From positions 1 through 64,000 of the forward strand of contig NZ_VJZZ01000008.1 in NCBI RefSeq assembly GCF_009659535.1: a stretch of DNA of 64,000 nt, written 5' to 3'. Below, piece by piece: positions 2,097-25,364 of the stretch; position 1 is the first letter of the stretch, and each line of letters starts with the position of its first letter. Made by a program: the position numbers and the translations under genes. Source of the DNA: Aggregicoccus sp. 17bor-14 (GTDB lineage Bacteria; Myxococcota; Myxococcia; Myxococcales; Myxococcaceae). The notes beneath the pieces were generated by a model. The model was not told the origin of the DNA and ran no database searches. It saw only the letters and a list, made by a program, of their open reading frames with translations.

Positions 2097-3557
2097 TCAC
2101 GTGGCCTCGTAGTGCTCGAGCTTCGGCGCGCGCGTCTGCTGGCGGTAGCGGAAGGTGAAGCCGGGCCAGTTGTTGGTGTTCTTGCCCTCCGCCGTCTTGT
2201 ACCAGCTCGTGCAGTCCGCGCCCCACACCGAGTGCGCGAGCCCCCGCTGCAGCCGCACGTTGAAGTCGCGCTGCACCTCGGGGCGCACGTCGAGCGAGCG
2301 CAGCCCGCGCTGCTGCAGCGCGCGGATGCAGCCGAGCACGTAGCGCACCTGGCTCTCCAGCATGAAGACGATGGAGTTGTGGCCGAGGTTGGTATTGGGC
2401 CCGTAGAGGAGGAAGAGATTCGGAAAGCCGGAGACGCTGATGCCCAGGTAGGCCTCGGCACCCTCGCGCCAGGCGGCGTTGAGCTCCTTCCCCTCCAGCC
2501 CGGTGATGCGCATGGGGGCGAGGAAGTCGGTCGCCTGGAAGCCGGTGCCGAAGATGAGCGCGTCCACGGTGCGCTCGCGCCCGTCCTCGGTGACGATGCC
2601 GTGCGCCGTCACCTCGCGGATGCCGTCCGTCACCAGCTCCACGTTGGGGCGGTTGAGCGCCGGGAGGTAGTCGTTGGTGAGCAGCACGCGCTTGCAGCCG
2701 ATGGGGTCCGCGGGAGTGAGGGCCGCACGCAGCTGCGCGTCGGGGACCTCGCGCGCGAGGCGCTTGCGAAAGCCGCGCTCCAGCCACGCGCGCACCCAGC
2801 CCGGGCCCTGGAAGGCCACCACCCGCGACTCGTGGCTCCAGTACTGCGCCCAGCGGCTGAGCGCCTGCGCCCCCGGGACGCGCGCGTACAGGGCCCGCTC
2901 GGTGGCGGAGTAGGCGCGGTCCGGCTTGGGGATGACGTACGCGGGCGAGCGCTGGAACACGTGCAGCTGCGCCACGCGCGGGGCGATCTGCGGCACGAAC
3001 TGAATGGCGCTCGCGCCGGTGCCGACGACCGCCACCCGCTTGCCCTCCAGCGGGTAGCTGTGATCCCACCGGGCCGAGTGGAAGCGCGTGCCCTCGAAAC
3101 GCTCGAGCCCCGCGAGCCGCGGGTACGCGGGGCGGTTGAGCTGGCCGCACGCGGACACCAGCACCCGCGCCGCGAGCGTGCGCCCTCCCTGCAGCGAGAG
3201 GCGCCACAGGCCGGCCTCGGCGTCGAAGCTCGCTCCCGTCACCTCGGTGCGCAGGTGCACGTGACGCCGCACGCCGAATCGCTCCGCGCAGTCCCGCAGG
3301 TAGACGAGGATCTCCTCCTGCGGGGCATAGCGCCGCGACCACTCCGCCTTCGGCGCGAAGGAGAACGAGTACAGGTGCGAGGGCACGTCGCAGGCGGCGC
3401 CCGGGTACGTGTTGTCCCGCCAGCAGCCGCCGAGCGCCTCCTCCTTCTCGAGGACCACGAAGTCCTCGAGGCCCTCCTGGCGCAGGCGGATGGCCATGCA
3501 GAGGCCGCCGAAGCCGCTGCCGATGATGGCGACCTGTACCTGCTGCGGGAGCTCCAC
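2097..3557 (-). CDS. Flavin-dependent Baeyer-Villiger monooxygenase (type I BVMO/FMO family)
   Basis: Two Rossmann motifs GSGFGG and GTGASA; BVMO fingerprint FEGTRFHSARWD (FxGxxxHxxxW[P/D]). Confidence 0.75.
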   Translation of the reverse strand: MELPQQVQVAIIGSGFGGLCMAIRLRQEGLEDFVVLEKEEALGGCWRDNTYPGAACDVPSHLYSFSFAPKAEWSRRYAPQEEILVYLRDCAERFGVRRHVHLRTEVTGASFDAEAGLWRLSLQGGRTLAARVLVSACGQLNRPAYPRLAGLERFEGTRFHSARWDHSYPLEGKRVAVVGTGASAIQFVPQIAPRVAQLHVFQRSPAYVIPKPDRAYSATERALYARVPGAQALSRWAQYWSHESRVVAFQGPGWVRAWLERGFRKRLAREVPDAQLRAALTPADPIGCKRVLLTNDYLPALNRPNVELVTDGIREVTAHGIVTEDGRERTVDALIFGTGFQATDFLAPMRITGLEGKELNAAWREGAEAYLGISVSGFPNLFLLYGPNTNLGHNSIVFMLESQVRYVLGCIRALQQRGLRSLDVRPEVQRDFNVRLQRGLAHSVWGADCTSWYKTAEGKNTNNWPGFTFRYRQQTRAPKLEHYEAT

Positions 3558-3561
3558 GGGC

Positions 3562-5715
3562 CTAGGCCGCGTCCTCGAAGCGGCCGCCGGTCTCCGCCTG
3601 CTTCACCACGATCGCCGCGGGCTCGAAGCGCGCCCCGTAGCGCCGCGCCAGCTCGCGCGAGCGCTCGACGAAGCGCTGGGCGCCTACGGAGTTGATGAAC
3701 TGCAGCGCGCCGCCCTGGAAGGGCGCGAAGCCCCAACCGAAGATGGAGCCGATGTTGCCGTCCGCGACCGATCGCAGCACGCCCTCCTCGAGGCAGCGGG
3801 CCGCCTCGTTCGCCTGGGCGTACATCAGCCGGTCGATGAGCTCCGCCTGGGCGGGCTGCTGCGCTGCGGGCGGGAAGAGCCGGGTGAGCTCCGGCCAGAG
3901 AGCCTTCTCCTTGCCCTCGTAGTCGTAGAAGCCCTTCCCTGCCTTGCGGCCCACGCGCCCGTGGGTCGCGCCCACGGCGCGCAGCGGCCCCTCACCGGGG
4001 TGCTCCGGCGCGCGCTTGCCCTCGGCCTCGAGGTCCTTACGGGTCTGCTCGCCGATGTGCAGCGAGAGGCTGAGCGACACCTCGTCCTGCAGCGCGAGCG
4101 GCGGCATCGGCATGCCTGCCTTCAGCCCCGCCATCTCGATGGAACGCGGGTGCACGCCCTCGCCCAGCATCGCCATGCCCTCCATGAGGTAGGTGGCGAA
4201 GACGCGCGAGGTGTAGAAGCCGCGCGAGTCGTTCACGACGATGGGCGTCTTGCCGATCTGCAGCACGTAGTCGAAGCCGCGCGCGAGCGTGGCGTCGCTC
4301 GTGCGCTCGCCCATGATGATCTCCACCAACTGCATCTTGTCGACGGGCGAGAAGAAGTGCAGGCCGATGAAGCTCTCCGGACGGGCGCTCGCCTGCGCGA
4401 GGCCCGTGATGGGCAGCGTGGAGGTGTTCGACGCGTACACCGCGCCGGAGGGGATGACCGCCTCCGCCTTGCGGGTGCACTCCGCCTTGATGCTGCGGTC
4501 CTCGAACACCGCCTCGATGACCAGGTCGCAGCCCTCGAGGTCCTCGTAGCGCGTCGTCGTCTTGATGCGGGCGAGCAGCGCATCGCGCTTCGCCTCCGTG
4601 CTCTTGCCGCGGCTCACCGCCTTGTCGAGCAGGCCCTTCGAGTAGCCCTTGCCGCGCTCGGCGTTCTCGAGGCTGGTGTCGAGCAGCACCACGTCGATGC
4701 CCGCCTTCGCGCTCACGTACGCGATGCCCGCGCCCATCATGCCGGCGCCAAGGATGCCCACCTTGCGCACGGGGTTGACGGGCACATCCTTCGGGCGCGA
4801 CTGGCCCTTCTTGAGGGCGTTGAGCTGGTACCACAGCGTGCCGATCATGTTGCGCGACTGCTGCGACATGACACAGGCGGCGAAGTAGCGGCTCTCCACC
4901 TTCAGCGCGTTGTCGATGTCCATCAGCCCGCCCTCGAAGACGCTCGAGAGGATGTGCGTGATGGCCGGGTAGTTGCCGTGGCTCTTGGCGTTCGCCACCG
5001 AGGGGGCAATGGCCCACAGCTGCGCGATCGCCGGGTGCTTCGAGTCCCCGCCGGGGAAGCGGAAGCCGGAGGTGTCCCAGGGCTGCTTGGGGCTGGGATT
5101 CGCCAGCGCCCACGCGCGCGCCTGGGCGATCAGCTCCTCACGCGTGGAGGCGAGGCCGTTCACCAGCCCCAGCTCCTTCGCCTTCTGCGCGGAGAGCTCG
5201 TCCCCCTGGGTGATGAGCTCGAGCGCCTTCTGGATGCCCACCATGCGCGGCAGGCGCTGGGTGCCGCCGCCGCCGGGCAGCAGGCCCAGCTTCACCTCGG
5301 GCAGGCCGAGCTTGAGCTTGGGGTCGTCCAGCGCGAAGCGCGCGTGGCAGGCGAGCGCGACCTCGAGGCCGCCGCCCAGCGCGGTGCCGTTGAGGGCCGC
5401 GACCACCGGCTTGCCGCTCTTCTCCAGGCGGCGCAGCAGCCCCTTGAGCTGCTCGCACAGCGCGAAGGCCTCCTCGGCGCTCTGGATGCGCGCGAGCTGG
5501 TCGATGTCCGCGCCCACGATGAACTGGGGCTTGGCGGAGGTGAGGACGAGGCCCTTGAGCTCCGCGTCCTTCTCCAGGCGCTCGACGAGCGCCGAGAGCG
5601 GCTCGAGCAGCGAGGGGTTGAGGACGTTCATTGCCCGGCCGGGCTGGTCGAAGGTGACCAGGCCCAGGCCCTGGGCATCCACGTCGATCGTCACGGCAGT
5701 CTGGGTGTGGCTCAT
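3562..5715 (-). CDS. fadB: Fatty-acid oxidation complex alpha subunit (enoyl-CoA hydratase/3-hydroxyacyl-CoA dehydrogenase)
   Basis: N-terminal crotonase fold, central GAGMMGAGIA NAD-binding motif, 717 aa; start ATG 5715 (MSHTQTAV) 15 nt after fadA stop. Confidence 0.85.
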   Translation of the reverse strand: MSHTQTAVTIDVDAQGLGLVTFDQPGRAMNVLNPSLLEPLSALVERLEKDAELKGLVLTSAKPQFIVGADIDQLARIQSAEEAFALCEQLKGLLRRLEKSGKPVVAALNGTALGGGLEVALACHARFALDDPKLKLGLPEVKLGLLPGGGGTQRLPRMVGIQKALELITQGDELSAQKAKELGLVNGLASTREELIAQARAWALANPSPKQPWDTSGFRFPGGDSKHPAIAQLWAIAPSVANAKSHGNYPAITHILSSVFEGGLMDIDNALKVESRYFAACVMSQQSRNMIGTLWYQLNALKKGQSRPKDVPVNPVRKVGILGAGMMGAGIAYVSAKAGIDVVLLDTSLENAERGKGYSKGLLDKAVSRGKSTEAKRDALLARIKTTTRYEDLEGCDLVIEAVFEDRSIKAECTRKAEAVIPSGAVYASNTSTLPITGLAQASARPESFIGLHFFSPVDKMQLVEIIMGERTSDATLARGFDYVLQIGKTPIVVNDSRGFYTSRVFATYLMEGMAMLGEGVHPRSIEMAGLKAGMPMPPLALQDEVSLSLSLHIGEQTRKDLEAEGKRAPEHPGEGPLRAVGATHGRVGRKAGKGFYDYEGKEKALWPELTRLFPPAAQQPAQAELIDRLMYAQANEAARCLEEGVLRSVADGNIGSIFGWGFAPFQGGALQFINSVGAQRFVERSRELARRYGARFEPAAIVVKQAETGGRFEDAA

Positions 5716-5729
5716 GGTCGTTGTCCCCT

Positions 5730-6935
5730 TCAGACCCGCTCGATGATGGTGGCGATGCCCATGCCGCCGCCGACGCACAGCGTGGCGAGGCCGGTGCCCT
5801 GGCCGCTGCGCTCCAGCTCGTCCAGCAGCGTGCCGAGGATGATGGCGCCGGTGGCCCCGAGCGGGTGCCCCATGGCGATGGAGCCGCCGTTCACGTTCAC
5901 CTTCTCCAGCGGCACGCCGAGGTCGCGCGCCGTCTTGAGGGGCACGGTCGCGAAGGCCTCGTTGATCTCGTACAGGTCGATGTCGCCCGGCGTCATCCCG
6001 AGCTTGCCCAGCGCCTTGCGGCAGGCGGGCGTGGGGCCGGTGAGCATGATGGTGGGCTCGGAGCCGGTGACGGCGCACATGCGCACGCGGGCCCGCGGCT
6101 TGAGGCCCGCGCGAGCGCCCGCGTCCTTGCTGCCGAGCAACACCAGCGCCGCCCCGTCCACGATGCCCGACGAGTTGCCCGCGTGGTGCACGTGCTGGAT
6201 GCGCTCCACGGTCGTGTACTTGCCGAGCGCGGTGGCGTCGAAGCCCATCTGCCCCATCGCCTCGAAGGAGGGGCTGAGCTTCGCGAGCGACTGCACGCTG
6301 GTGCCCGGGCGGATGGTCTCGTCCTCGGAGAGCAGCGTCATGCCGTTGAGATCCTTCACCGGCACCACGGAGCTCTTGAACAGGCCCGCGGCGCGCGCGC
6401 GGGCGGCCCGCTCGTGCGAGCGCGCCGCGTACGCGTCCAGCTCCTCGCGGCCGAAGCCCTCGAGCGTGGCGATGAGGTCCGCGCTGATGCCCTGGGGAAT
6501 GAAGCCGAGCGCAGTGTTCACGCGCGGGTCCATGGCCCACGCGCCGCCGTCCGAGCCCATGGGCCAGCGGCTCATCGACTCGACGCCGCCCGCGACGACG
6601 AGGCTCTCCATGCCGCTCGCCACCTTCGCTGCGGCGAGGTTCACGGCCTCGAGCCCCGAGGCGCAGAAGCGCGAGAGCGTCACGCCCGCCACCGACTCGT
6701 GCCAGCCCGCGTCCAGCACGGCGGTGCGCGCGATGTCCGCGCCCTGCTCGCCCACCGGCGTCACGCAGCCGAGCACCACGTCGTCCACCTGGGAGGTGTC
6801 CAACGCGTGGCGCTGCTGCAGCGCCTGCAGCAGCGTGCGCAGCAGCCACACCGGCGTCGCCTGGTGCAGGCTGCCGTCCTTCTTGCCCTTGCCGCGCGGA
6901 GTGCGCACGGCGTCGTAGATGTAGATGTCGTTCAT
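5730..6935 (-). CDS. fadA: 3-ketoacyl-CoA thiolase
   Basis: [17 protein letters not shown]-terminus, active-site Cys region [11 protein letters not shown]-terminal CVGGGMG. Confidence 0.85.
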
Positions 6936-6959
6936 ATGGGGGCTCCGAGGGGGGTGCTG

Positions 6960-8114
6960 CTAGAGGAAGCGCGAGGCGAGCTCCTTCATGATCTCATTGG
7001 TCCCGCCGTAGATGCGCTGCACGCGCGCATCCGTCCACAGGCGGGCGATGAGGTACTCCTTCATGTAGCCGTAGCCGCCGAACAGCTGCAGGCACTCGTC
7101 GATGACCCGGAACTGCTGCTCGGTCACCCAGTACTTCACGAGCGCGGCCTGCTCCACGCCGAGCTGGCCCTGCAGGTGCGCCGCGATGGCGCCGTCCACC
7201 ATCGCGCGCGCGGCCAGCACGGTGGCCTGGCACTCGGCGAGCTTGAAGCGCGTGTTCTGGAACGCGAACACCGGCTTGCCGAAGGCGGTGCGCTCCTTGG
7301 TGTAGGCCACCGTCTCCTGCACGGCGAGCTCCATCGCGGCGATGCCGGCGAGCGCGACGATGAGCCGCTCCTGCGGCAGCTGCTCCATCAGCTGCACGAA
7401 GCCCTGCCCTTCCTCGGCGCCGAGCAGGTGGGCCGCGGGGACGCGCACGTCCTCGAAGAACAGCTCCGCGGTGTCCTGAGACTCCATGCCGATCTTCTCG
7501 AGGTGGCGCCCGCGGCGGAAGCCCTCGGCCCCGTCCGTCTCCACCACCAGCAGCGAGATGCCATGCGCGCCCTGCGCCTTGTCCGTTTTGCACGCGACGA
7601 TGACCAGGTTGCCCAGCTGCCCGTTGGTGATGAAGGTCTTCGCGCCGTTGAGCCGGTAGAAGTCGCCCTCGCGCAGCGCCGTCGTGCGGATGCCCTGCAG
7701 GTCCGAGCCCGTGCCCGGCTCGGTCATCGCGATGGCGCCCACCAGCTCGCCCGACGCGAGCTTGGGAAGCCAGCGCTTCTTCTGCGACTCGGTGCCGTAG
7801 TGCGAGATGTACGGCGCCACGATGCCCGAGTGCAGCGAGCCACCGAAGCCGCTGATGCCGGCGGCTCCTTGCGCGAGGATGAGCGCCGCCTCGTGGCCGA
7901 AGTCCCCGCCGCCCCCGCCGTACTCCGCCGCGGTGGACGCGCAGAGGAAGCCCTGCGCGCCCGCCTCGCGCCAGGCCTCGCGGTCCAGGCTCCCCTGTGC
8001 GCGCCAGGCCGCATCCCGCGGCGCCCACTGCTCCTTGAAGAAGCGCGTGGCCGTCTCGAGGATCATCCGGTGCTCGTCGGTCATCCAGCTGGAGGCGAAG
8101 CTGCTGATGGGCAT
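6960..8114 (-). CDS. Acyl-CoA dehydrogenase
   Basis: ACAD fold motifs (AMTEPGTGSD, YGGYGY C-terminal); start trimmed to ATG 8114. Confidence 0.8.
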   Translation of the reverse strand: MPISSFASSWMTDEHRMILETATRFFKEQWAPRDAAWRAQGSLDREAWREAGAQGFLCASTAAEYGGGGGDFGHEAALILAQGAAGISGFGGSLHSGIVAPYISHYGTESQKKRWLPKLASGELVGAIAMTEPGTGSDLQGIRTTALREGDFYRLNGAKTFITNGQLGNLVIVACKTDKAQGAHGISLLVVETDGAEGFRRGRHLEKIGMESQDTAELFFEDVRVPAAHLLGAEEGQGFVQLMEQLPQERLIVALAGIAAMELAVQETVAYTKERTAFGKPVFAFQNTRFKLAECQATVLAARAMVDGAIAAHLQGQLGVEQAALVKYWVTEQQFRVIDECLQLFGGYGYMKEYLIARLWTDARVQRIYGGTNEIMKELASRFL

Positions 8115-8126
8115 GGGGCTCTCTTC

Positions 8127-8142
8127 GGTAATCTTGATTACC
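8127..8142. promoter_or_regulatory. Perfect 16-bp palindrome GGTAATCTTGATTACC (putative TetR operator 1)
   Basis: Read directly; lies 13 nt upstream of the ACAD start in the divergent intergenic region. Confidence 0.5.
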
Positions 8143-8238
8143 GCAGTGGCGGCGTGACGCAGCGCGATGTGCATGCTGGCGGGCGGCGCTCCCCGCGTCA
8201 AGCCGCGCTGCTCGCAATGGCACTCGGAGTCGGAATAT

Positions 8239-8254
8239 GGTAATCCAGATTACC
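8239..8254. promoter_or_regulatory. Perfect 16-bp palindrome GGTAATCCAGATTACC (putative TetR operator 2)
   Basis: Second copy of the same half-sites (GGTAATC/GATTACC) 15 nt upstream of the TetR start. Confidence 0.5.
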
Positions 8255-8268
8255 ACCGGAAGACCCAC

Positions 8269-8904
8269 ATGCCCTCTCGCGCACACCGCCCCACTCCCCC
8301 GCCCGACCGCCGCGCCGCCCTGGCCGAGATGCGCCCGGACGCCCTGCGCCGCGTGGAAGAGGCGGTGCTCGCGCTGTTCTCGAGCCGCGACTTCCACGAC
8401 GTGGGCCTGGTGGAGGTGGCGCGCGCGGCGAACGTGAGCCTGCAGACGCTCTACAAGTACTTCGGCGGCAAGGAGGAGCTGGTCTACGCGGTGCTGGACA
8501 TCGCGCTGGGCCGCCTTGCCGAGCGCATGGTGGATCACCTGCAGGGCATCGACGAGCCGCGCGAGCGCCTGCGCAAGACCTGCTGGGTGACGCTGGACTT
8601 CATGGACAAGCACCCCGCCGCGATGATGCTCCTGTCCAACGCGGTGCCGGCCTCGCGCTACGGCAACATCCGCAGCTACGAGAGCCCGGAGCTGATGGGG
8701 GCGTTCCGCGGCGTGCTCGAGGACGGCCAGCGGCGCGGCGTGCTCAACGACCGGGTCTCGAGCAAGGTGCTGCTGGACGTGTTCATGGGGGTCATCGGCC
8801 GGGTGGTGTTGATGCACATCGTGCGGCGCGAGAAGCGCCCGCTCATCGAGCAGTTCGACGCGCTCTTCGACATCCTCTGGCGCGCGATGTCCCGGCCGGC
8901 GTGA
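8269..8904 (+). CDS. TetR/AcrR-family transcriptional regulator
   Basis: N-terminal helix-turn-helix (VGLVEVARAANVSLQTLYKYFGGKEEL); divergent from the beta-oxidation operon; start set to ATG 8269. Confidence 0.75.
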   Translation: MPSRAHRPTPPPDRRAALAEMRPDALRRVEEAVLALFSSRDFHDVGLVEVARAANVSLQTLYKYFGGKEELVYAVLDIALGRLAERMVDHLQGIDEPRERLRKTCWVTLDFMDKHPAAMMLLSNAVPASRYGNIRSYESPELMGAFRGVLEDGQRRGVLNDRVSSKVLLDVFMGVIGRVVLMHIVRREKRPLIEQFDALFDILWRAMSRPA

Positions 8905-22294: not shown

Positions 22295-22530
22295 GATGCC
22301 CGCGGCCACCAGCAGGGCGCCGCGGCCGGCAGGCGGCGTGGTGCGCGCGGGCGCGGAGGGAGGGGACGAAGCGGTCGAGGGGCGCTGGGGCTCGGAGGGC
22401 GAAGTGCTCACGGGAGCGCGGACTGTACGCACACGAACGCGGCCGCCAGAAGCGCGAAGCTCGCCGCCGGTCATCTGCCGGCTCTTTCCCTTGACGGGCG
22501 AGGCTTCGCGCAGTGAAGGTCAGGAGCGCC

Positions 22531-22983
22531 ATGGCCGCCTCCTCCGACATGCCCGTGCTCGGCGAGCTGCTCCCCGGCGAGCTGCTGGAAGACATCGCGC
22601 GGGTGCGCCGGGTGCTGGCGCGGGAGCTGGAGACCATCAACGAGTACGAGGCCTTCGCCGCGCGCTCGAGCAGCCCCGAGGTGCGCGCCTTCTTCAGCCA
22701 CCTCGCCCAGGAAGAGAAGGAGCACGTGGCCGAGGCCACCGCCATGCTCCGCCGCCTGGACGCCGGCCAGGAAGCGCACTTCGCCCGGGGCCTTGCTCCC
22801 GGCCACTTCGAGGGGGCCCCCTCCCCTGCCGCCCCGGCCCCTGCGCCCGACACCGGCCTGGAGGGCTCGCGCGTGGCGCTGCAGCCGCAGCGCGTGGTGT
22901 ACGGGCTCGCCGCCCCTCCTGCCGCCCGCGCGGCGCCGCTCACCGTGGGCTCGCTCAAGCCGCCGCGCGGCGGCAGCCGCTGA
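22531..22983 (+). CDS. encB: Ferritin-like (EncFtn/EncB-type hemiferritin) encapsulin cargo protein with a C-terminal cargo-loading peptide
   Basis: EYEA and EEKEH di-iron ligand motifs on two helices; Pro/Ala-rich linker; C-terminal LTVGSLKPPRGGSR; AGGAG Shine-Dalgarno 4 nt before the ATG. Confidence 0.7.
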   Translation: MAASSDMPVLGELLPGELLEDIARVRRVLARELETINEYEAFAARSSSPEVRAFFSHLAQEEKEHVAEATAMLRRLDAGQEAHFARGLAPGHFEGAPSPAAPAPAPDTGLEGSRVALQPQRVVYGLAAPPAARAAPLTVGSLKPPRGGSR

Positions 22984-23013
22984 CCCGCCTTTCCCGCCTG
23001 AAGGAGCACGCCG

Positions 23014-23883
23014 ATGCCTGACTTCCTGGGACACGCCGAGAACCCGCTGCGCGAGGAGGAGTGGGCGCGCCTCAACGAGACCGTCATCCAGGTGGCCCGC
23101 CGCTCGCTCGTGGGGCGCCGCATCCTGGACATCTACGGCCCGCTGGGCGCCGGGGTGCAGACGGTGCCTCACGACGAGTACCAGGGCGTCTCCCCGGGCG
23201 CGGTGGACATCGTGGGCGAGCAGGAGACGGCGCCGGTGTTCACGGACGTGCGGCGCTTCAAGACCATCCCGCTCATCTACAAGGACTTCCTGCTGCACTG
23301 GCGCGACATCGAGGCGGCGCGCACGCACAACATGCCGCTGGACGTCTCGGCCGCCGCGGGCGCCGCCGCCTTCTGCGCGCAGCAGGAGGACGAGCTCATC
23401 TTCTACGGCGACCCCAAGCTGGGCCACGAGGGGCTGATGAACGCGGCCGGGCGGCTCACGGCGACGCTCGGGGACTGGAGCCAGCCGGGCAACGCGTACC
23501 TCTCCATCGTGGAGGCCACGCGCCAGCTCAACGAGCACGGCCACTACGGGCCCTACGCCGTCGTCGTCAGCCCCCGCCTCTACTCGCTCATGCACCGCAT
23601 CTACGAGAAGACGGGCGTGCTGGAGATCGAGACCATCCGCCAGCTCGCGGCGGACGGCGTGTACCAGTCCAACCGCCTGCGCGGCGATGCGGGCGTGGTG
23701 GTTTCCACGGGCCGTGAGAACATGGACCTGGCCGTGTCCATGGACATGGTGGCGGCGTACCTCGGTGCCGCCCAGATGAACCACCCCTTCCGCGTGCTCG
23801 AGGCGCTCATCCTGCGCATCAAGCACCCGGACTCCATCTGCACCCTCGAGCCGGCAGCAGCGGCGCCCGCGGCGCTGCGCTAG
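23014..23883 (+). CDS. encA: Family 1 encapsulin nanocompartment shell protein (HK97 fold, linocin M18-like)
   Basis: 289 aa; N-terminus [24 protein letters not shown] and C-terminal region closely match Myxococcus-type EncA (from memory); AAGGAG Shine-Dalgarno 7 nt upstream. Confidence 0.85.
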
Positions 23884-23897
23884 GAGCGGTGACGTAC

Positions 23898-25364
<1,467 letters not shown>

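Follow-up and report, generated by a model that had tools for sequence, protein, structure and literature searches.

Two exact palindromes between a TetR gene and a divergent β-oxidation operon

The 64,000-nucleotide (nt) stretch of Aggregicoccus sp. 17bor-14 analyzed here (contig NZ_VJZZ01000008.1, positions 1-64,000, forward strand; hereafter "the window") carries two exact 16-base-pair (bp) palindromes between a gene for a TetR-family regulator and a divergently oriented operon for fatty-acid β-oxidation, which begins with an acyl-coenzyme A (acyl-CoA) dehydrogenase (ACAD) gene. Comparison with orthologous loci makes it probable that the two palindromes are a real, strongly conserved pair of operators for a TetR repressor of the fatty-acid type, with binding of the repressor predicted at both. 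The elements concerned are as follows, with O_dist and O_prox denoting the palindrome on the ACAD side and on the TetR side, respectively.

8127-8142, no strand: O_dist, predicted ACAD-side operator GGTAATCTTGATTACC, an exact palindrome with an equivalent site in 32 of 32 paired loci, mostly with a perfect core
8239-8254, no strand: O_prox, predicted TetR-side operator GGTAATCCAGATTACC, an exact palindrome whose orthologous consensus, cattTGGTAATATnnATTTCC, contains TGnTAATAT
8269-8904, + strand: gene for a TetR-family repressor of 211 amino acids (aa; Pfam TetR_N), the putative cognate binder, with orthologs 68-93% identical in the same synteny
6960-8114, - strand: ACAD gene, first of the operon (Pfam Acyl-CoA_dh_N/M/1), 73-85% identical to the gene at the same position in relatives
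8126-8119, - strand: Shine-Dalgarno-like sequence GAAGAGAG of the ACAD gene
5730-6935, - strand: thiolase (acetyl-CoA C-acyltransferase; NCBIfam PRK08242, 678 bits against a cut-off of 514), 77-89% identical in relatives
3562-5715, - strand: FadB/FadJ-type enoyl-CoA hydratase / 3-hydroxyacyl-CoA dehydrogenase (Pfam ECH_1, 3HCDH_N and 3HCDH)

The first-pass annotation of this DNA had reported the palindromes at these positions, 112 nt apart, between a TetR gene and a divergent β-oxidation operon; the sequence and a pattern search confirmed the former, and Pfam and NCBIfam matches the latter. From GGTAATCTTGATTACC to GGTAATCCAGATTACC the distance is 112 nt start to start and 96 bp edge to edge, within a TetR/ACAD intergenic region of 154 nt that is rich in guanine and cytosine (GC) except at the two operators, which are AT-rich. 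O_dist lies 12 nt upstream of the ACAD ATG (8114, - strand), and O_prox ends 14 nt before the TetR ATG (8269, + strand).

At up to two mismatches, GGTAATCTTGATTACC and GGTAATCCAGATTACC were the sole matches found by the pattern search in the 64-kilobase (kb) window. When the window was shuffled 100 times with its dinucleotide composition preserved, 0.01 matches were expected, and none of the 100 shuffles reached two. Because the sites are unique in 64 kb and the shuffles never gave two, we do not regard the pair as a chance event, in agreement with the earlier judgment that an exact duplicate of this kind would hardly arise at random. Relaxing the search to the 12-base core GGTAAT/ATTACC, again with up to two mismatches, added one window site, the intragenic GGTGATCATCATCACC at 24122.

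Two identical arms in a single region could also be copies of a dispersed repeat or the ends of a mobile element, an explanation to which we give almost no credence. It draws on a scan of a genome-contig collection of 596 gigabases (Gb) with the exact 14-base pattern GGTAATCNNGATTACC, which returned at least 120 matches across many phyla, with Aggregicoccus absent among the matches listed. However, the 13 proteobacterial matches that we examined all lay inside open reading frames (ORFs), except those in two genuine loci (L153 and L198) and one on an AT-rich contig of a metagenome-assembled genome (MAG). This prevalence of ORFs is consistent with the ~2,000 chance matches estimated for a 14-base pattern in 596 Gb. 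The window itself holds two copies only, both at conserved positions of one orthologous locus, and no further site was found in it (bar the two-mismatch site at 24122) or in the 4-7 kb flanks of the relatives. Likewise, ~0.3 megabases (Mb) of related loci gave no site at up to two mismatches beyond the intergenic pairs, save a few scattered two-mismatch matches. Across the window and the related loci, the palindromes thus do not behave like a scattered element.

The sites persist in orthologous loci while the surrounding DNA diverges

To follow the sites across species, orthologous loci were gathered via exact-protein look-ups and a metagenome scan with the TetR protein, and a site was accepted at up to two mismatches to the core GGTAAT-N4-ATTACC. 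The resulting footprint sample comprised 32 distinct paired loci from Myxococcota, Sphaerotilaceae, Comamonadaceae and Rhodanobacter, the last three representing Beta- and Gammaproteobacteria. Nearly every locus with a TetR at least 61% identical to that of the window, and with its upstream region included, showed two sites between the divergent genes, and the core columns were conserved in 28-32 of the 32 paired loci, while the intergenic sequence around both sites had diverged. The TetR orthologs, 61-93% identical, keep their divergent arrangement with ACAD-thiolase-FadB; one locus lacks ACAD. In L060, the 61%-identity locus, ~700 bp of extra DNA (3260-4000) lies between the TetR gene and the two operators, which are directly upstream of the thiolase gene, with no ACAD present.

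The alignment also sharpened the description of the site itself. The ACAD-side site usually has a perfect core, and the TetR-side site most commonly has ATTTCC as its right half. The central four bases are variable, with a weak preference in the ACAD-side sites, which mostly have Y at position 7 and R at position 10. The family-wide operator pattern, GGTAATYNNRATTACC, holds 12 unambiguous bases. The first-pass description of 7-bp half-sites with a 2-nt spacer is true of this window; across the orthologs, the conserved unit is 6+4+6, so that perfect 7+2+7 symmetry is a peculiarity of this genome. In the same way, the sites do abut the ACAD and TetR starts here, at 12 and 14 nt, but this closeness is incidental: the ACAD-side operator lies ~12 to ~70 nt from the ACAD start codon across loci, and ~25-70 nt from it in the relatives.

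Between the two operators, the spacing ranges from 102 to 189 bp and falls into six clusters (102, 110-113, 148-151, 156-157, 175-180 and 187-189 bp), among which no common helical phase was found at 10.5 bp per turn. The palindromes had been proposed as an operator pair for a TetR dimer of dimers controlling both divergent promoters. The pair as such, with one site per divergent unit, is borne out by its conservation in the 32 loci, whereas the dimer of dimers is unsupported, because the spacing varies without a common phase and each palindrome, at 16 bp, would accommodate one TetR dimer.

We also considered whether the sites might act as an RNA hairpin in the leaders, affecting stability or translation, or as a DNA cruciform. 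A 7-bp hairpin can form at each palindrome, with folding energies between -5.6 and -7.8 kcal/mol; against shuffles, the site-1 26-mer scored z = -3.6, and O_dist is predicted to be transcribed. Yet the sequence changes follow no structure: in a covariation sample of 62 distinct sites with six core pairs each, there were 0 compensatory and 41 one-sided changes, and 35 of these 41 break pairing, as in the ATTTCC right half. The lack of compensatory double changes is meaningful, because the two-mismatch threshold would have let them in. Moreover, shuffled sequences fold as well as the whole predicted ACAD leader (z = -0.39), Rfam gave no match, and the distance to the start codon varies as described above. 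We therefore rejected an RNA element and consider any structural role of the palindromes extremely unlikely. The absence of compensatory changes and of an Rfam match, together with leader folding like that of shuffles, points instead to constraint on base identity, as for a protein-binding site.

The adjacent TetR protein as the predicted binder

The product of the gene next to O_prox has the features that mark the TetR family, an N-terminal helix-turn-helix domain (TetR_N PF00440, 41.5 bits with a cut-off of 24, E = 1.1e-10), an all-helical C-terminal domain for ligand binding and dimerization (weak matches to TetR_C_29 and TetR_C_24) and a size of ~200 aa, and 47 TetR-family chains in the PDB match it at E <= 1e-3. 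Both 16-bp sites, in turn, fit the usual form of a TetR-family operator, a palindrome of ~15-30 bp near the regulator's own or a divergent gene. A Shine-Dalgarno-like GGAAGA (8258-8263) precedes the TetR ATG, within the 14-nt gap that is typical of the clade to which the window belongs.

Three observations link this protein to the sites. First, all motif-bearing TetRs have one and the same recognition helix, VSLQT[LI]YKY, including a protein of Stutzerimonas stutzeri that came up in the pattern scan and is only 46% identical overall, while a group of TetRs at ~35% identity carries VSFS[TS]IY instead; upstream of the latter, GGTAAT-N4-ATTACC sites were not found and a different conserved repeat is present. 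Second, in S. stutzeri CLN100 (L153), the motif occurs three times in 8 kb (at 4238, 7357 and 7524). One copy lies upstream of an operon of the 46%-identical TetR and two ACAD genes; the other two are separated by 167 bp and flanked by genes for a 4HBT thioesterase and a thiolase, the latter 78% identical to that of the window. The motif therefore marks β-oxidation genes at more than one operon. Third, the motif travels with this TetR subfamily across three bacterial classes. On these grounds we infer that the adjacent TetR is the cognate binder of both sites.

The same evidence bears on the alternative that the sites are bound by a regulator encoded elsewhere and that the adjacent TetR recognizes something else. 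The pairing of TetR with the sites comes from comparison, and the S. stutzeri motif is also found at the thioesterase/thiolase pair, ~3 kb from the TetR gene. The co-occurrence of motif and subfamily in three classes, apparently including a horizontal transfer, speaks against this alternative, however, as do the recognition helix that tracks the motif and the constant overlap of one site with the putative promoter of the TetR gene itself; we consider it very unlikely.

Some observations on these relatives stand by themselves. The S. stutzeri thioesterase/thiolase pair shows the twin-site layout where the regulator is neither of the flanking genes. In the loci of the ~35%-identical TetRs (L052-L058, L062), a box CTTGACAA...(G/A)GAACATTGTTTC(G/T)C lies upstream in an AT-rich context and is presumably their own promoter and operator. 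A tblastn search of annotated plasmids with the window TetR returned nothing above 39% identity, with matches of partial length.

Predicted promoters and mode of repression

Conservation across the loci points to back-to-back promoters from which the TetR gene and the ACAD-thiolase-FadB operon would be transcribed. Their putative elements in the window are listed below.

8196-8201, - strand: -35 element of the ACAD operon, TTGACG; in 31 of 32 loci, a TTGNNN is present 36-38 nt away from O_prox, and the element forms a conserved island in the alignment of the window clade
8173-8178, - strand: -10 element of the ACAD operon, CAGCAT, 17 nt from the -35 element; (C)ANNAT is found at 17-18 nt in 31 of 32 loci
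8217-8222, + strand: tentative -35 candidate of tetR, ATGGCA, 18 nt before the -10 candidate; a TGGC block is invariant in the four sequences of the window clade
8238-8246, + strand: extended -10 candidate of tetR, TG-g-TAATCC, inside O_prox; TGgTAATAT is conserved in betaproteobacterial orthologs

The ACAD -10 element appears as CAAGAT, CAACAT, CAATAT, CAGCAT and other variants across the loci. With these elements, transcription of the ACAD operon is predicted to start near 8166 (- strand) and that of tetR near 8253 (+ strand). O_prox would then overlap both the extended -10 element and the start site of the tetR promoter, and its center lies at -80 to -82 from the putative ACAD start site in all loci with a detected promoter. 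O_dist, on the other side, is located at about +24 to +40 from the putative ACAD start site here, the range in relatives being +13 to +116. Hence, the operators bracket the putative ACAD promoter in each of the 31 loci where it was detected. In many betaproteobacterial loci (e.g., L208, a Giesbergeria MAG, 3326-3342), the TetR ATG directly follows the operator/-10 element, and this adjoining ATG suggests that the tetR mRNA is leaderless or has a very short leader in those orthologs.

These positions suggest how the switch could work. One TetR dimer would bind each 16-bp palindrome with its GGTAAT-N4-ATTACC core. Bound at O_prox, it would occlude the tetR promoter and thereby regulate its own synthesis; bound at O_dist, it would form a roadblock downstream of the ACAD promoter that stops promoter escape or elongation into the β-oxidation operon. 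By analogy with the FadR proteins of Bacillus and Thermus and with PsrA, a fatty acid or acyl-CoA on the C-terminal domain of TetR may release it from the DNA. Because O_dist is conserved downstream of the putative ACAD promoter, a roadblock (or a loop) is likely at ACAD, rather than occlusion of the promoter.

The loop would be a cooperative one, in which TetR dimers at O_prox (around -81) and O_dist (around +32) touch and join into a tetramer, enclosing the ACAD promoter in the manner of gal OE/OI, so that both promoters are repressed. The gal repression loop is close in size to the 112-bp separation seen here, and the bracketing of the promoter by the operators would fit such a loop. The clusters at 102, 112, 157, 178 and 188 bp fall within ~0.2 turn of an integer at an assumed in vivo repeat of ~11.1 bp, and the Rayleigh R is 0.56 at 11.0 bp compared to 0.41 at 10.5 bp; this phase signal is not significant, however, given a repeat length picked post hoc and loci that are phylogenetically non-independent. 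Furthermore, the spacing is not conserved, the cluster at 148-151 bp does not fit the phase, no tetramerization feature was identified in the protein, and we know of no gal-type loop that is an established mechanism in the TetR family. A loop therefore appears unlikely to us. If it did form, the spacing classes of ~112, 157 and 178 bp would be alternative in-phase solutions, and a TetR-family protein would be building a gal-type loop.

Relation to known regulators

FadP, said to control fatty-acid degradation, is a TetR-family protein whose prediction from comparative genomics is attributed to Kazakov et al. 2009 and RegPrecise. Its predicted hosts are Burkholderia, Ralstonia and Comamonadaceae, and its regulon core comprises autoregulated fadP, acdH (ACAD), acdA/fadA, acdB/fadB, etfAB and etfD (Leyn et al. 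2016, PMC5343134). The regulon is also listed with fadD, counts ~18 target genes per genome and is described as unique to Betaproteobacteria (PMC5343134). In Ralstonia, a fadP deletion derepresses the adjacent β-oxidation operon, and FadP is said to regulate 12 operons, implying a global role (PMC12543098); the deletion result indicates that regulators of the FadP kind work as repressors. The window resembles this system in its TetR-family regulator, in the autoregulation suggested by the placement of its sites and in its local genes, which match the ACAD/thiolase/hydratase-dehydrogenase core. The nearest relatives of the cassette are, moreover, Burkholderiales, including a genus of the Comamonadaceae. 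It differs in that FadP is described as confined to Betaproteobacteria, with an implied global role, whereas the host here is a myxobacterium and the two sites considered are local. The regulator may well belong to the FadP group, which was computationally predicted in Burkholderiales.

In its layout the locus is close to TetR/tetO of Tn10, which likewise has a divergent repressor and two palindromes of 15-16 bp, with one dimer per operator and both genes repressed (PMC9736018). The Tn10 operators tetO1 and tetO2 are 11 bp apart and both overlap promoters, whereas those of the window are 96 bp apart and one is predicted to lie in the transcribed leader. The target of Tn10 TetR is an efflux pump; here the target and, by analogy, the effector would be metabolic. 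The architecture is therefore that of the TetR/tetO paradigm with wider operator spacing, an ordinary type of gene switch, and what sets it somewhat apart is the operator in the predicted leader, whose distance to the promoter differs between loci. Twin palindromes between a TetR gene and its divergent target are textbook knowledge, so that no current concept is challenged.

The FadR proteins of Bacillus and Thermus are TetR-family repressors of β-oxidation genes that are released by long-chain acyl-CoA. The window TetR finds its best full-length matches, by profile and by structure-sequence comparison, in Bacillus FadR (YsiA; PDB 1vi0, 3whb) and Thermus FadR. The Bacillus protein is not an ortholog, however: its NCBIfam model, NF053878, is the best NCBIfam match of the window TetR at 45.1 bits against a cut-off of 200, E is ~1e-6 to the PDB chains, and operator and taxon differ.

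Three further regulators were considered and set aside. PsrA and Smlt2053, TetR-family fatty-acid sensors of Pseudomonas and Stenotrophomonas, repress a fadBA-type operon and regulate their own expression, much as predicted for the regulator here; long-chain fatty acids release them from DNA in electrophoretic mobility shift assays (PMC10304680). Their operator, G/CAAAC(N2-4)GTTTG/C, is unrelated to GGTAAT-N4-ATTACC (PMC10304680), and the regulator gene is co-directional with the operon, while the window TetR gene is divergent. We rejected identity with PsrA on this different operator and on an NF053516 score of 26.5 bits against a cut-off of 300, and Smlt2053 as a characterized ortholog on the operator. 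PA3973 of Pseudomonas aeruginosa, a TetR gene that also adjoins an ACAD and a thioesterase gene, has two 14-bp (pseudo)palindromes over its own -10 element, and the bound sequence TGAATCCGGATTCA shares a central AATCCnGATT with O_prox (PMC9736018). The outer bases differ (TGAAT compared to GGTAAT), and the consensus from chromatin immunoprecipitation sequencing, SAAGRNMTGAACG, is unrelated (PMC9736018). Because the shared bases are the non-conserved center of the motif in the window family, the likeness is probably coincidental, and PA3973 was rejected as a characterized ortholog for its different operator.

Several points weigh against the picture of a FadP-like repressor acting at these two sites. 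TetR binding, transcription and the effector response are deduced from comparison and analogy. In the GC-rich region of the window, no canonical promoter emerged from a simple sigma-70 consensus scan, which gave one weak match in L004, so that the promoter assignments derive from cross-locus conservation. An operator at +24 to +116 is unusual as a sole means of repression, and looping or an unrecognized second promoter may contribute. The regulator reaches 45 bits with the NCBIfam FadR model, well short of the cut-off of 200, and its membership in the FadP group, which builds on gene content and taxonomic neighborhood, is plausible.

If the assignment holds, a widespread TetR subfamily of which no experimentally characterized member was found in the literature searched gains a well-defined operator that can be tested, GGTAAT-N4-ATTACC, together with its recognition helix, VSLQT[LI]YKY. 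This subfamily would control the ACAD-thiolase-FadB module in Burkholderiales, Rhodanobacter, some Pseudomonadales and, via apparent transfer, a myxobacterium. The motif could serve in regulon annotation, and the regulators possibly as fatty-acid or acyl-CoA biosensors.

Apparent horizontal origin of the cassette

The window has a GC content of 72% and contains core housekeeping genes, and its SucC has Corallococcus and Myxococcus as next relatives, at 84-86% identity, after a protein of Aggregicoccus sp. 17bor-14 itself, to which SucC, like FadB with its own counterpart there, is 100% identical. The cassette of regulator and operon (3562-8904) has a different affiliation. Among the 120 best relatives each of TetR and FadB, a few are 83-93% identical, one of them labeled as a Myxococcaceae MAG, and the rest are at ~70-80%; besides that one MAG, no other myxobacterium is among these 120 best relatives of either protein. 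Of those at ~70-80%, all that are named belong to Burkholderiales (Aquabacterium, Leptothrix, Rubrivivax and Giesbergeria) or, for FadB, to Rhodanobacter. In Aquabacterium and Leptothrix, the counterparts of the window's ACAD, thiolase and FadB share 73-82% identity with them and lie in the same order. With nearest relatives, outside a small clade, in Burkholderiales and Rhodanobacter, as opposed to the myxobacterial ones of SucC, the cassette appears to have moved horizontally between Proteobacteria and the Aggregicoccus lineage, with the myxobacterium as the apparent recipient. The whole switch (the repressor, both operators and both putative promoters) may have stayed intact while the intergenic DNA drifted to 70+% GC, and it would then be an example of cis-regulatory sites outlasting horizontal transfer and GC amelioration.

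Probable operon tail and other genes of the window

Two more genes follow fadB on the same strand.

2097-3557, - strand: flavin (Baeyer-Villiger-type) monooxygenase (Pfam FMO-like/Pyr_redox_3), separated from fadB by a 4-nt gap
1201-2100, - strand: α/β-hydrolase esterase (Pfam Abhydrolase_3), with a 4-nt overlap with the monooxygenase gene

From this gap and overlap, the monooxygenase and esterase genes probably extend the operon as co-transcribed members, forming a lineage-specific tail. Its gene content suggests a chemistry from ketone to ester to acid plus alcohol that would feed β-oxidation. At the corresponding position, the relatives have genes for a family III CoA-transferase and for a second ACAD instead. 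Elsewhere in the window, at 22513-25364, genes for an EncFtn-like protein and a Linocin_M18 encapsulin shell directly precede one for an NtrC-type sigma-54-dependent response regulator.

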